DNA of 64,000 bases from a virus. Where the stretch lies: IMG/VR virus record IMGVR_UViG_3300045988_126550, positions 64,001 through 128,000 of that record; one strand, 5' to 3'. The notes below the pieces were generated by a model, which worked only from the letters and a program-made list of their open reading frames with translations, was not told where the DNA came from and did no database searches. Position numbers and translations under genes: made by a program. This document shows, piece by piece, positions 12,036 to 12,167 of the stretch (the first letter of the stretch is position 1; each line of letters starts with the position of its first letter).

Positions 12036-12167
12036 GCGGGTATGGTGGAATCGGCAGACACAAGGGACTTGCTGATAGCCAGTGCTTTGGTAGGGGCAGC
12101 ACCTACAATCAGTACCAAAAATCCCTCGGAGAAATCCATGCGAGTTCAAATCTCGCTACCCGCACCA
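12036..12167 (+). tRNA. class II tRNA-Leu(UAA) with a 47-nt insertion in the anticodon (between U34 and A35); CCA encoded
   Basis: GCGGGTA-TG-GTGGAATCGGCAGACAC; anticodon stem AGGGA (12063-12067) / TCCCT (12122-12126); loop ends CTT...AAAA; variable arm CGGAGAAATCCAT; T arm GCGAG-TTCAAAT-CTCGC; TACCCGC-A-CCA. Confidence 0.75.

Follow-up and report, generated by a model that had tools for sequence, protein, structure and literature searches.

To our knowledge, the tRNA introns known so far from bacteria and phages are removed by self-splicing only. In cyanobacteria and plastids, the group I intron of tRNA-Leu(UAA), located between U34 and A35 of the anticodon loop, exceeds 200 nt and splices itself as a ribozyme. 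In archaea and eukaryotes, tRNA splicing is carried out by proteins, with two structure-defined cuts made by EndA or TSEN and a ligase, RtcB or Trl1, rejoining the halves held by the tRNA body. Archaeal bulge-helix-bulge introns, which are short and sit in anticodon loops, have their splice sites in two 3-nt bulges on opposite strands, 4 bp apart. Phage T4 heals anticodon-loop damage caused by PrrC with Pnkp and seals it with Rnl1. The closest described system is found in the Lak megaphages, whose tRNA introns were called 'enigmatic' and for which no mechanism was proposed (Devoto et al., 2019, Nat Microbiol, PMC6784885). The authors stated that the intron of tRNA-Thr(TGT) 'may encode a tRNA'; RNase P, ligase and splicing are nowhere mentioned in their paper, and no architecture is proposed (PMC6784885). 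Literature searches yielded no description of a nested tRNA-like intron architecture or mechanism, the prior art being limited to this Lak-phage report.

The insert described here, which interrupts a tRNA-Leu(UAA) gene in a 64,000-nt stretch of viral DNA (the window), is a compact variant of these poorly understood Lak-type phage tRNA introns. Our re-reading of Table S6 of the Lak paper indicated that each of the four introns listed there has a tRNA-like acceptor and T-arm unit at its end (PMC6784885). Both types occur in the anticodon-loop region of gut-phage tRNAs, vary in presence between related genomes, and are nearly identical where present. The Lak introns differ in being 79–114 nt long, in being placed near 37/38 by tRNAscan, and in having a 27–31-nt leader, canonical T loops, and no terminal CCA, whereas the window type is flush at both ends, terminates in NCCA, can be as short as 46–47 nt, and mostly has the loop sequence GGCAGNA. 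The window insert is the smallest and cleanest example, and its comparison with the others reveals the common nested tRNA or tRNA-stub design.

An earlier sequence-only reading had identified the gene at positions 12036–12167 as an interrupted tRNA-Leu(UAA), which was borne out by two programs. The Rfam tRNA model (RF00005) gave it 43.1 bits, above the gathering score of 29 (E = 1.1e-6), and placed a 51-nt insertion in the anticodon loop. ARAGORN overlooked the gene under default settings and, with introns allowed, returned a tRNA-Leu(UAA) of 85 nt with a 47-nt intron at the proposed junction. The class II features read as had been described, with the acceptor GCGGGUA/UACCCGC, a D stem of 3 bp, the anticodon stem AGGGA/UCCCU, the variable arm CGGAGAAAUCCAU, the T arm GCGAG-UUCAAAU-CUCGC, and A73-CCA at the end. 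The 54 nt separating the two anticodon stem strands (12068–12121) include the 47-nt insert at 12071–12117 (+ strand), between U34 and A35; as the earlier reading had held, no alternative boundaries yield CTTAAAA. The 5′ exon (12036–12070, + strand) comprises the acceptor 5′ strand, the D arm, the anticodon stem 5′ strand, and C32, U33, and U34, while the 3′ exon (12118–12167, + strand) comprises A35–A38 of the loop, the anticodon stem 3′ strand, the long variable arm, the T arm, the acceptor 3′ strand, A73, and CCA. With the insert taken out, the exon junction reads …ACAAGGGACTT joined to AAAATCCCTCGG…, and the result is a class II tRNA with the 7-nt loop CUUAAAA, U33, a purine at position 37, a long variable arm, and A73. 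It is the sole tRNA-Leu(UAA) gene that ARAGORN detected in the window, where UUA accounts for 29% of the leucine codons in 19 long ORFs. Directly upstream of the gene lie a Ro60/TROVE-like gene and two conserved tRNA-like RNAs. A PDB sequence search with the DUF2828 protein gave nothing meaningful, and fold comparison was used instead.

A brute-force deletion scan showed ARAGORN to be permissive to arbitrary deletions. Therefore, in-silico splicing was weighted by the existence of intron-less alleles and clean 7-nt loops. Three related phage contigs (L003, L005, and L009) carry a syntenic, uninterrupted tRNA-Leu with the loop CTTAAAA, and five others (L004, L006, L010, L011, and L013) carry the syntenic gene as CTT, 47 nt, and AAAA. 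The joined exons of L004 are identical in sequence to the uninterrupted gene of L003, and the 5′ exon of the window gene is identical or nearly identical to the intron-less alleles. Since syntenic relatives without the insert match the joined exons, the junction is fixed independently of the tRNA finder. Syntenic intron-less counterparts also exist for interrupted tRNA-Gln and tRNA-Lys genes, with 96% and 87% identity to the joined exons, respectively. A search of the phages collection for an isolated, annotated phage with the intron gave exon matches only, and a query with a tRNA carrying the odd T loop gave a single weak match.

The exons bear the marks of a gene under selection for function. 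Across 13 diverged lineages, pairing in the helices of the joined exons reached 99.3%, and 16 of 22 pairs showed double changes. All 12 Leu(UAA) lineages retained CUU...AAAA as the split loop, the single Leu(CAA) lineage having CUC...AAAA, and no decayed tRNA-Leu copies were present among the pattern matches. Exon and intron divergence were correlated (Mantel r = 0.50, p = 0.0008). The host gene thus appears to remain functional, and the conservation of the exons suggests that the insert is excised and the exons rejoined in vivo.

It is also conceivable, if quite unlikely, that the insert is never removed, and that the transcript is a non-decoding RNA or the precursor of a released mini tRNA-like RNA and/or tRNA halves, which might for instance decoy host defences that attack tRNAs or work together with the nearby TROVE-like protein. 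The presence of that gene and of the two tRNA-like RNAs beside it would fit such a role, as would a mini of the same design that stands free in contig L042, outside any tRNA, which implies that minis may have a function of their own. Against this reading, the exons are identical to an intron-less allele, the gene fills the slot of the only tRNA-Leu(UAA) of a phage in which UUA codons are common, and the 13 lineages have kept all tRNA helices by compensatory change together with the split anticodon loop. Such conservation would make little sense without rejoining of the loop.

Judged from its sequence, the 47-nt insert is a tRNA top half in miniature, flush with both junctions. The helices CUGAU/AUCAG and GUAGG-GGCAGCA-CCUAC, which had been pointed out before, exist and covary across a family of similar inserts. 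The 5′ strand of an acceptor-like helix, GCUGAUA (12071–12077, + strand), begins at the first base of the insert and pairs with AAUCAGU (12107–12113, + strand) by 6 bp and an A.A mismatch. It is followed by the 12-nt linker GCCAGUGCUUUG (12078–12089, + strand), which takes the place of the D and anticodon arms and in which CCAGUG is conserved in most Leu-type members. The T-arm-like hairpin GUAGG-GGCAGCA-CCUAC (12090–12106, + strand; 5 bp and a 7-nt loop) abuts the acceptor-like 3′ strand, and an ACCA tail (12114–12117, + strand), a discriminator-like A and CCA, ends on the final base of the insert. The hairpin 17-mer occurs once in the window and recurs, in unrelated contigs, as the T arm of phage tRNAs that stand free. 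Its loop GGCAGCA deviates from the canonical UUCRANY and is strongly conserved in sequence, which could point to a dedicated recognition protein rather than general enzymes.

Thermodynamic folding did not recover the nested structure from the whole precursor, whose minimum free energy was −46.1 kcal/mol versus −37.9 kcal/mol for the proposed structure. Both proposed helices of the insert did form once the exon cloverleaf was enforced. A possible pairing of the linker GUGCU with AGCAC of the T-like loop, mimicking a D-loop/T-loop contact, was no better than with shuffled linkers (p 0.07–1.0).

The window insert belongs to a family of 32 distinct inserts of the same design, which come from many phage contigs and interrupt tRNAs for Leu, Gln, Lys, Ile, Glu, and Pro; by sequence and predicted fold, these are nested tRNAs or tRNA-like elements seated in the anticodon loops of tRNAs from gut phages and other phages. 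The window member has the acceptor-like helix spanning 7 positions, the hairpin of 5 bp and 7 nt, the NCCA end, and flush termini, and the phage tRNA whose anticodon loop it occupies is intact apart from the insert and has intron-less alleles in relatives. The insertion positions across the family range from 34/35 to 36/37. The sizes form a series, from a complete tRNA of 77 nt through increasingly degenerate inserts of 73–76 nt and 69–63 nt to minis of 46–57 nt. The 77-nt insert, in the tRNA-Ile(UAU) gene of L003 and L004, was recognized as a bona fide tRNA(CUA) by ARAGORN and scored 49.7 bits with Rfam. Some members have the canonical T loops UUCGAGU or UUCAAGU. The 3′ end is NCCA in 30 of the 32 distinct members and ACAA in the other 2. 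The sequence-only reading had the interrupted tRNA-Leu(UAA), its U34/A35 junction and the insert's being far too small for a group I intron right; the tRNA-like shape and the widespread family had escaped it, and the likeness it drew to an insert at 9919–9977 does not hold.

The pairing in the inserts was examined by covariation in 23 family members. A covariance model was attempted from a MAFFT alignment of the whole mini-intron, in which the 5′ strands fell out of register because linker lengths differ; pairing-based scans were therefore kept. The 23 members were selected by a scan that required at least 6 of 7 acceptor-like and 5 of 5 T-like pairs. Pairing amounted to 95% in the acceptor-like helix, where all 7 pairs showed double changes, and to 100% in the T-like stem, where 4 of 5 pairs did; these percentages are partly built in since the scan demanded pairing, while the diversity of pair types is not. 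When the 3′ partners of the 23 members were slid by 1–3 columns, pairing fell to 31–45%. A scan that did not fix where the 5′ strand lies placed it right after the exon CTT in all Leu cases.

These data bear directly on what kind of intron this is. In favor of a self-splicing group I intron, decayed or minimal, the host gene and insertion site are the same as those of the cyanobacterial and plastid intron. The insert is far below group I size, as had been argued before, and the P3–P9 core cannot fit in 47 nt; instead of a ribozyme core, the covarying structure is a tRNA-like minihelix, and related inserts sit at 35/36 and 36/37 of other tRNAs. Rfam Intron_gpI had no match at E<=1 in positions 8000–17000, and the insert alone matched no family at E<=10, so that the check for a decayed fragment by covariance models, suggested by the earlier reading, found no trace of one. 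We assign this explanation a negligible probability. In the same interval (8000–17000), Rfam found no self-cleaving ribozyme of the pistol, hatchet, twister, or hammerhead type at E<=1.

An equally negligible probability is given to an archaeal-type bulge-helix-bulge intron removed by a splicing endonuclease, even though such introns are likewise short, sit in anticodon loops, and are removed by protein. Here a single 6–7-bp helix has both junctions at the same end, with the 3′ junction 4 nt past the helix, and no EndA-family match was found in about 45 window ORFs scanned. The logic may nevertheless be shared with archaeal and eukaryal splicing, in that two structure-defined protein cuts would be followed by ligation of halves held by the tRNA body. 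The differences are the minihelix in place of a bulge-helix-bulge, the positions from 34/35 to 36/37 rather than mainly 37/38, and an Rnl1-type candidate ligase.

The distribution of the insert could also be that of an element mobile at the DNA level, namely a small palindromic insertion sequence that targets tRNA genes and whose hairpins serve transposition only. Near-identical phages differ in the presence of the insert, the intron core is only 6% different between tRNA-Leu genes that differ by 28%, and an HNH endonuclease gene (14315–14809) lies within the tRNA cluster. On the other hand, the ends match tRNA position +1 and CCA to the base, the helices have tRNA dimensions, the insert is confined to the tRNA sense strand and to loop positions 34/35 to 36/37, complete tRNAs are among the members, and no transposase association was observed. 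Since all these properties are RNA-level ones, we consider a purely DNA-level element very improbable.

The tRNA-like shape, flush with both junctions, leads to a concrete excision hypothesis, in which the insert is a tRNA-derived mini-intron that would be cut out by RNase P and a 3′ endonuclease and the gap resealed by a phage Rnl1-type ligase; we judge its chances to be about even. The insert would have retained just those tRNA parts that are read by the end-maturation machinery, namely the acceptor-like helix stacked on the T-like stem and ACCA, with tRNA position +1 corresponding to intron base 1 and the A of CCA to the final intron base. First, RNase P would cleave at the 5′ end of the acceptor-like helix, leaving the 5′ exon with a 3′-OH on U34. 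Second, a 3′-end endonuclease, of the RNase Z or RNase E type or a phage enzyme, would cut after CCA and release the 3′ exon, which would carry a 5′-phosphate or a 5′-OH subsequently phosphorylated by the phage kinase-HD protein. Third, with the halves kept together by the tRNA body, the T4 Rnl1-type ligase would seal the nick in the anticodon loop. We propose that inserts of this kind could spread among phage tRNA genes because a phage with the repair kit already on board would tolerate them.

Bacterial RNase P prefers U(−1), G(+1), and a 3′ RCCA. The base preceding the insert is U in 30 of 32 family members and the first base is G in 24 and C in 8; with the frequent NCCA end, the flanks and ends thus fit RNase P. 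The window insert itself has the features of an RNase P minihelix substrate, with helices of 7 and 5 bp, ACCA, U(−1), and G(+1), its loop GGCAGCA being non-canonical. The weak link of the model is the 3′ cut. In many bacteria, CCA-encoding tRNAs are matured by exonucleases, from which no defined 3′ exon would result, and among about 45 window ORFs scanned there was no RNase Z-like gene. Cleavage right after an encoded CCA is known for Thermotoga maritima RNase Z and, in some cases, for RNase E (PMC7479834). Whether the model extends to the Lak introns may be doubted on the basis of their sequences, since a 27–31-nt leader precedes the tRNA-like part and RNase P alone cannot create that 5′ junction.

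Candidate enzymes for the later steps are encoded 7–14 kb downstream of the tRNA-Leu gene, where an Rnl1-type ligase, a kinase-HD protein, a nucleotidyltransferase, and a Thg1-like protein are found; the ligase and the kinase-HD gene, to which the earlier reading had also pointed, were identified by Pfam and PHROG. The T4 Rnl1-type RNA ligase (19908–21023, + strand) matched Pfam RNA_lig_T4_1 with 58.5 bits against a cut-off of 28.3, as well as phrog_562 (T4 gp63-like, E 1.3e-48), and would be the candidate for sealing the tRNA-Leu nick. A fusion of a polynucleotide-kinase-like P-loop domain with an HD domain (22718–23623, + strand; Pfam AAA_33 1.2e-24, HD 1.6e-3; phrog_505 'polynucleotide kinase') is the putative end healer. 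In their neighborhood lie a nucleotidyltransferase beside the ligase (21288–22097, + strand; phrog_388, E 1.9e-18, no Pfam match), possibly a CCA-adding enzyme, and an HD-domain protein upstream of the ligase (18598–19413, + strand; Pfam HD 6e-7, ExoX-like_C 1.9e-9; phrog_5889). The search for Rnl1 homologues yielded only relatives of at least 68% identity. The unrelated, intron-bearing contig L042 encodes homologues of the ligase (50% identity) and the kinase (36% identity) within about 10 kb of its interrupted tRNA-Leu.

The final step of the proposed pathway would match T4 tRNA repair, with sealing by the Rnl1 family and a polynucleotide kinase, both encoded in the window. In T4 the break is made by a host defence nuclease in a host tRNA, whereas here it would be programmed by an insert in a phage tRNA gene. 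The cutting steps would resemble those of the MALAT1 mascRNA and mitochondrial tRNA punctuation, where cuts by RNase P and RNase Z, guided by an embedded tRNA-like fold, set the ends of the flanks. There the flanks are released unjoined, while here they are two tRNA halves that need ligation.

The same genes also suit a different enzyme for the cuts. A dedicated phage endonuclease might read the T-like arm GG-GGCAGCA-CC and cut both junctions, leaving a 2′,3′-cyclic phosphate and a 5′-OH as in the enzyme-based tRNA splicing of eukaryotes and archaea, after which the kinase-HD protein would heal and Rnl1 would seal the ends. The sequence of the T-like arm, beyond its structure, is conserved across very different host tRNAs and phages; both junctions lie at one helix end, within reach of a single enzyme; and the Lak 5′ leader is left unexplained by RNase P. 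The phage moreover has a full heal-and-seal set, a kinase and HD phosphoesterases, which would be superfluous if both cuts were hydrolytic, although these genes are equally explained by defence against host anticodon nucleases. In addition, no candidate nuclease was found, and the odd T-like loop is not required, since some family members have canonical T loops or are real tRNAs. We regard the dedicated endonuclease as unlikely.

If the RNase P-based model is true, a protein-dependent tRNA splicing pathway would be added to bacteria and phages, and phage Rnl1/Pnk genes would gain a second role besides countering host anticodon nucleases. The broader claim, that this would constitute a third tRNA splicing route in bacterial viruses, in which a nested tRNA or stub intron is excised by end-trimming enzymes and the exons are rejoined by a repair ligase, is put forward tentatively and is on the improbable side. 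Under the RNase P-based model, two tRNAs could arise from one nested gene, such as the suppressor tRNA(CUA) within tRNA-Ile, a case that bears on stop-codon recoding in gut phages. A comparable nesting is known from the archaeal tRNA-Trp intron with its box C/D small RNA, which is excised via a bulge-helix-bulge and contains a methylation guide rather than a tRNA. Since the intron ends match position +1 and CCA of a mature tRNA exactly, an origin can also be imagined, much less likely, in which a mature tRNA was mis-ligated into a nuclease-cut anticodon loop and copied back into DNA. The introns would then be genomic fossils of the phage–host conflict over tRNAs.

Two further inserts in the window are of other kinds. 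The insert at 9919–9977, which had been likened to that of tRNA-Leu, has its hairpin adjoining the 5′ strand of the stem and lacks the 7-nt T-like loop. In relatives, ARAGORN called this gene variously Glu, Gly, or 'stop', and no single deletion gave one consistent canonical tRNA across them. As the brute-force deletion scan yielded no unique or conserved tRNA, the insert was rejected as one of the same kind. The gene at 10020–10136 is of another type, a tRNA-Asn(GUU) in which 43 nt are inserted between positions 26 and 27. Without the intron option, ARAGORN skipped three interrupted tRNA genes in the window. Consequently, phage tRNA inventories are undercounted, since default bacterial tRNA finders miss interrupted genes.

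The class II tRNA-Leu(UAA) gene read directly from the + strand at 12036-12167 of the window is interrupted by 47 nt at 12071-12117, and this insert is a tRNA-shaped mini-intron, one of a widespread family of phage-tRNA introns that are themselves nested tRNAs or tRNA-like elements. The host tRNA comprises the acceptor stem GCGGGUA/UACCCGC, a 3-bp D stem with the D loop GAAUCGGCAGA, the anticodon stem AGGGA/UCCCU, the variable arm CGGAGAAAUCCAU, and the T arm GCGAG-UUCAAAU-CUCGC followed by A73 and CCA, with 54 nt, starting with CUU and ending with AAAA, separating the anticodon-stem strands. 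The Rfam tRNA model matched this gene with a large loop insertion (43.1 bits against a gathering score of 29, E 1.1e-6). ARAGORN did not call it at default settings and, with introns allowed, reported an 85-nt tRNA-Leu(UAA) with a 47-nt intron at U34/A35. Using the 528-aa protein adjoining the tRNA-Leu, we collected 15 related phage loci, and in all 15 the tRNA-Leu lay just 3′ of this protein. The tRNA-Leu of three relatives (L003, L005, and L009) had no insert and the loop CTTAAAA, that of five others (L004, L006, L010, L011, and L013) had CTT + 47 nt + AAAA, and the L003 tRNA was identical at every base to the joined exons of L004. Because of these uninterrupted syntenic alleles, boundaries other than 12071-12117 do not fit. 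The intron-permitting ARAGORN call and the intron-less alleles thus agree with the interruption at U34/A35 proposed by the sequence-only reading. Since the interrupted gene was the only tRNA-Leu(UAA) that ARAGORN found in the window, and UUA made up 29% of the Leu codons in its 19 long ORFs, a working product would be expected.

The insert has the layout of the top half of a tRNA, with a 7-bp acceptor stacked on a T stem of 5 bp with a 7-nt loop, followed by a discriminator and CCA. On the + strand, the acceptor-like 5′ strand GCUGAUA (12071-12077) pairs with the acceptor-like 3′ strand AAUCAGU (12107-12113), against which the T-like hairpin GUAGG-GGCAGCA-CCUAC (12090-12106) lies flush; a 12-nt linker fills the sequence between 12077 and 12090, and the ACCA tail (12114-12117) ends the insert. 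The first intron base therefore corresponds to tRNA position +1 and the last to the CCA end. The helices CUGAU/AUCAG and GUAGG-GGCAGCA-CCUAC, named in the earlier reading, are present within the acceptor-like helix and the T-like hairpin. A weak point of the model is that the minimum free energy fold of the precursor differs from the nested fold. A pseudoknot between the linker and the T loop was not supported when tested.

Known intron types were compared with the insert. Rfam gave no match to Intron_gpI or other ribozyme families at E<=1 in 8000-17000 and none to any family at E<=10 with the insert alone, and this absence of matches ruled out a group I or ribozyme identity. An archaeal intron was also ruled out, as archaeal introns have bulge-helix-bulge geometry, whereas both junctions here sit beside a single helix, at its same end.

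Viral contigs scanned with GTAGGGGCAGCACCTAC showed that the T-like arm of the insert also serves as the T arm of free-standing full-length phage tRNAs on many unrelated contigs, and the scan further recovered unrelated phages whose tRNA-Leu(UAA) is interrupted. A second pattern (GGGGCAGYACC, 9-14 nt, CCAAAAATC), searched in viral contigs, genomes, and metagenomes, brought the interrupted tRNA-Leu lineages to 13, comprising 12 Leu(UAA) and one Leu(CAA), whose acceptor stems diverge strongly among themselves and whose contigs included one each from an uncultured Prevotella bin, an Acetatifactor bin, and a human gut assembly. No intron in a decayed tRNA was among the search-pattern matches. The collected DNA was then scanned for the general design (a 7-nt segment, a 5-bp stem closing a 7-nt loop, 7 nt that pair with the opening segment, and NC(C/A)A), and each element was deleted in silico and kept if the remainder was a canonical tRNA whose loop was a clean 7 nt. 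This procedure yielded 32 distinct inserts. They interrupt Leu(UAA) (47-63 nt), Leu(CAA) (69 nt), and Pro(UGG) (69 nt) at 34/35, Gln(UUG) (46-49 nt) and Lys(UUU) (56-75 nt) at 34/35 or 35/36, Ile(UAU) (73-77 nt) at 34/35 or 36/37, and Glu(UUC) (77 nt) at 36/37. The tail was NCCA in 30 of the 32 and ACAA in two, the exon base 5′ of the insert was U in 30/32, and the first insert base was G (24/32) or C (8/32). When any 7-nt loop was permitted, all positives had either the odd loop (GGCAGNA/GUCAUCA) or a canonical T loop. The architecture of the window insert and its membership in this family are well supported.

The largest insert, 77 nt in the tRNA-Ile(UAU) of two relatives (L003 8166-8319; L004 8175-8328, insert 8212-8288), is itself a complete tRNA with the anticodon CUA (ARAGORN; Rfam 49.7 bits), so that an amber suppressor tRNA is nested between U36 and A37 and one gene contains two tRNAs. 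Inserts of 73-76 nt retain D-like and anticodon-like arms with defective loops, and in the shortest, the minis, a linker of 12-28 nt stands in place of these arms. Such a size series suggests that nested tRNAs were reduced in the course of evolution to the smallest still-recognisable unit. The unrelated, intron-bearing locus L042 also carries, at position 4309 on the - strand, a 47-nt free-standing mini of the same design (GGUUUGU…AAGGG-GUCAGUA-CCCUU-AUAGACC-GCCA) outside any tRNA gene; therefore, minis may serve a function of their own.

The helices were tested on an ungapped alignment of the acceptor-like strands, T-like arm, and tail of 23 members. Pairing held in 97% of cells, a percentage partly built in by preselection in the scan (>= 6/7 and 5/5 pairs), and both sides had changed in 11 of 12 pairs, a covariation reached by none of 500 shuffles; sliding the partners by 1-3 columns lowered pairing to 31-45%. 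Two features were not imposed by the scan, namely the diversity of up to six pair types per position and the freely placed 5′ strand, which landed directly 3′ of the exon CTT every time. Once joined, the exons from the 13 tRNA-Leu lineages were paired in 99.3% of cells with double changes in 16/22 pairs, their universal tRNA bases were invariant, and the split loop read CUU…AAAA throughout Leu(UAA) (12 lineages) and CUC…AAAA in the single Leu(CAA) lineage. Intron-less counterparts were 96% (Gln) and 87% (Lys) identical to the joined exons. Since ARAGORN proved permissive, accepting many arbitrary deletions in a brute-force test on another RNA, the in-silico splicing argument rests on the intron-less alleles, normal lengths, and canonical loops. 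Exon and intron divergence were correlated (Mantel r = 0.50, p = 0.0008), an argument for prolonged joint inheritance under selection, and there are two informative exceptions. The exons of L056 and L004 differ by 28% and their intron cores by only 6%, suggesting that an intron moved between genes; the window and L004 differ by 4% in exons and 20% in the intron core, the acceptor-like helix of the window being rewritten with compensating changes.

Judging from these sequence comparisons, the insert is likely spliced, and its design points to the tRNA end-maturation machinery as the excision route. Bacterial RNase P cuts minihelices consisting of an acceptor and T stack with a 3′ RCCA and prefers U(-1)/G(+1), and the 5′ junction of the window insert fits this preference in all these features. 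RNase P would cut the 5′ junction first, leaving a 5′ exon with a 3′-OH. The 3′ junction directly follows CCA, and 3′ endonucleases acting there leave a 5′-phosphate on the downstream piece. Thermotoga maritima RNase Z has been described as cutting endonucleolytically directly after CCA, and RNase E does so in some cases (PMC7479834). Such a cut would release a 3′ exon with a 5′-phosphate, and the tRNA would then be nicked in the anticodon loop. A tRNA with this nick is a known sealing substrate of T4 Rnl1, and the phage Rnl1-family ligase would seal it in a third step. These enzyme assignments are a reasoned guess; the enzyme of the 3′ cut is only hypothetical, and exonucleolytic 3′ maturation could not do the job. 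As the main rival explanation, a dedicated protein may perform the excision, signalled by the conserved odd T-like loop.

The Lak megaphages, whose tRNAs carry "enigmatic introns", offer the closest published comparison for the insert (Devoto et al., 2019; PMC6784885). That study described phage tRNA introns as previously unreported, noted that the Lak tRNA-Thr intron may encode a tRNA, and made no mention of RNase P, ligase, or splicing. In our rescan of its Table S6, which lists Tyr, Phe, Thr, and Gly introns, all four ended with an acceptor and canonical-T-arm unit without CCA, preceded by a leader of 27-31 nt. The broad phenomenon is shared, whereas the window insert is compact, CCA-bearing, and flush-ended, and because of the Lak leader the RNase P model cannot hold everywhere as a full explanation. 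A full-text literature search found no description of the nested-insert architecture or mechanism. A 2024 study of theta ribozymes beside gut-phage tRNAs independently shows that these phages devote functions of their own to the processing of tRNA 3′ ends; they are enriched for CCA-adding enzymes and RNA ligases (PMC10879173).

The window is a phage region of ~36% GC with genes for an integrase, siphovirus-type tail proteins, DNA polymerase III alpha, and NrdD, and a tRNA cluster. Genes for RNA end repair and tRNA maturation are grouped at 18598-26484; they encode an HD-domain protein (18598-19413), the Rnl1-family ligase (19908-21023), a nucleotidyltransferase (21288-22097), a polynucleotide-kinase-like/HD fusion (22718-23623), and a Thg1-like 3′-5′ polymerase (25651-26484). 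Homologues of the ligase and kinase also lie near the interrupted tRNA-Leu of L042. An HNH endonuclease gene (14315-14809), directly 3′ of tRNA-Lys within the tRNA cluster, is a possible driver of gene conversion there. In the small sample of 19 long ORFs, 13 ended with TAA, six with TGA, and none with TAG; relatives carry the nested tRNA(CUA), possibly of relevance to stop-codon recoding by these phages.

Directly upstream of the tRNA-Leu, the 528-aa DUF2828/DUF7788 protein (10340-11926; phrog_850, "RNA-binding protein") is predicted to combine a TROVE-like (Ro60-type) module with a vWA domain. Its AlphaFold2 model was of moderate confidence (mean pLDDT 65.5), and the best Foldseek match in the PDB was 9kop, "Trove domain" (E 6.5e-8), the others being vWA domains. 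With tRNA-like genes on either side and an RNA ligase nearby, its setting is reminiscent of the rsr-Y RNA-rtcBA repair operons of bacteria. Every relative has two tRNA-like genes with structured inserts upstream of this protein, and these inserts are of another class than the tRNA-Leu intron. In the gene at 9888-10011 (Rfam tRNA, 49.8 bits), the strands of the anticodon stem are separated by a structured insert of 59 nt that ends with NCCA followed by A in all relatives, and no deletion yields a consistent canonical tRNA, the result being Glu, Gly, or stop depending on the relative. The earlier interpretation was partly supported: the interruption and helices of the tRNA-Leu stood, and the shared layout claimed for the insert at 9919-9977 did not. 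Because the gene at 9888-10011 is kept upstream of the TROVE-like gene even in the relative L012 (60% protein identity), its RNA may be a Y-RNA-like partner of the protein. The tRNA-Asn(GUU) gene at 10020-10136 is interrupted outside the anticodon loop, where an insert of 43-44 nt separates positions 26 and 27, and becomes a canonical tRNA-Asn upon removal of this insert in the window, L001, L002, and L003; lacking an NCCA tail and a T-like hairpin, this insert represents a different interruption class.

Six copies of the motif (A/U)A(A/C/G)CAGCAA-N-UUU surround the TROVE-like gene within 9949-11952 (at 9949, 10076, 10152, 10217, 10300, and 11942), and their clustering alone is notable, as the count across the window is not above chance. 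Several copies come directly after either a hairpin or a stem's 5′ strand, and the inserts of the two tRNA-like genes contain two copies. The motif also occurs in L012, L021, L056, and L085, and in relatives it is found a few bases upstream of tRNA genes as well. Its role could lie in protein binding, in processing, or in promoter activity, and the motif resembles the D loop AACAGCA of certain unusual phage tRNAs.

These free-standing tRNAs, found in many unrelated metagenomes (L016, L017, L019, L020, L021, L029, L035, L041, L048, L051, and others), combine normal anticodon loops with a T loop that reads GGCAGNA where UUCRANY is canonical and with a D loop, AACAGCA or AACAGUA, that lacks G18 G19. 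They appear to form a structural class of their own among phage tRNAs, of which no description was found in the literature. In Alphaproteobacteria and other bacterial metagenome-assembled genomes (L072, L074, L075, L083, and L084), the T-loop-like GGGGCAGUACC followed by …CCACCA may be the acceptor piece of a two-piece tmRNA, and its likeness to the odd phage T loop could be either coincidental or meaningful. Within the window, a degenerate tRNA-like sequence was seen by eye at ~12304-12367, with a T arm ACGG-UUCGAUU-CCGU, a 5-nt "anticodon loop", no CCA, and no call by Rfam or ARAGORN. The 77-nt tRNA at 12557-12633, called Leu from its anticodon CAA, is without the long variable arm of bacterial tRNA-Leu, unlike the normal 85-nt Leu(CAA) of the relatives. 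The tRNA-Ile(UAU) at 13077-13172 has a length of 96 nt, including ~22 additional nt in its variable region, and a 40-nt stretch of it is 95-97% identical to the tRNA-Ile of Lactobacillus/Levilactobacillus brevis phages.
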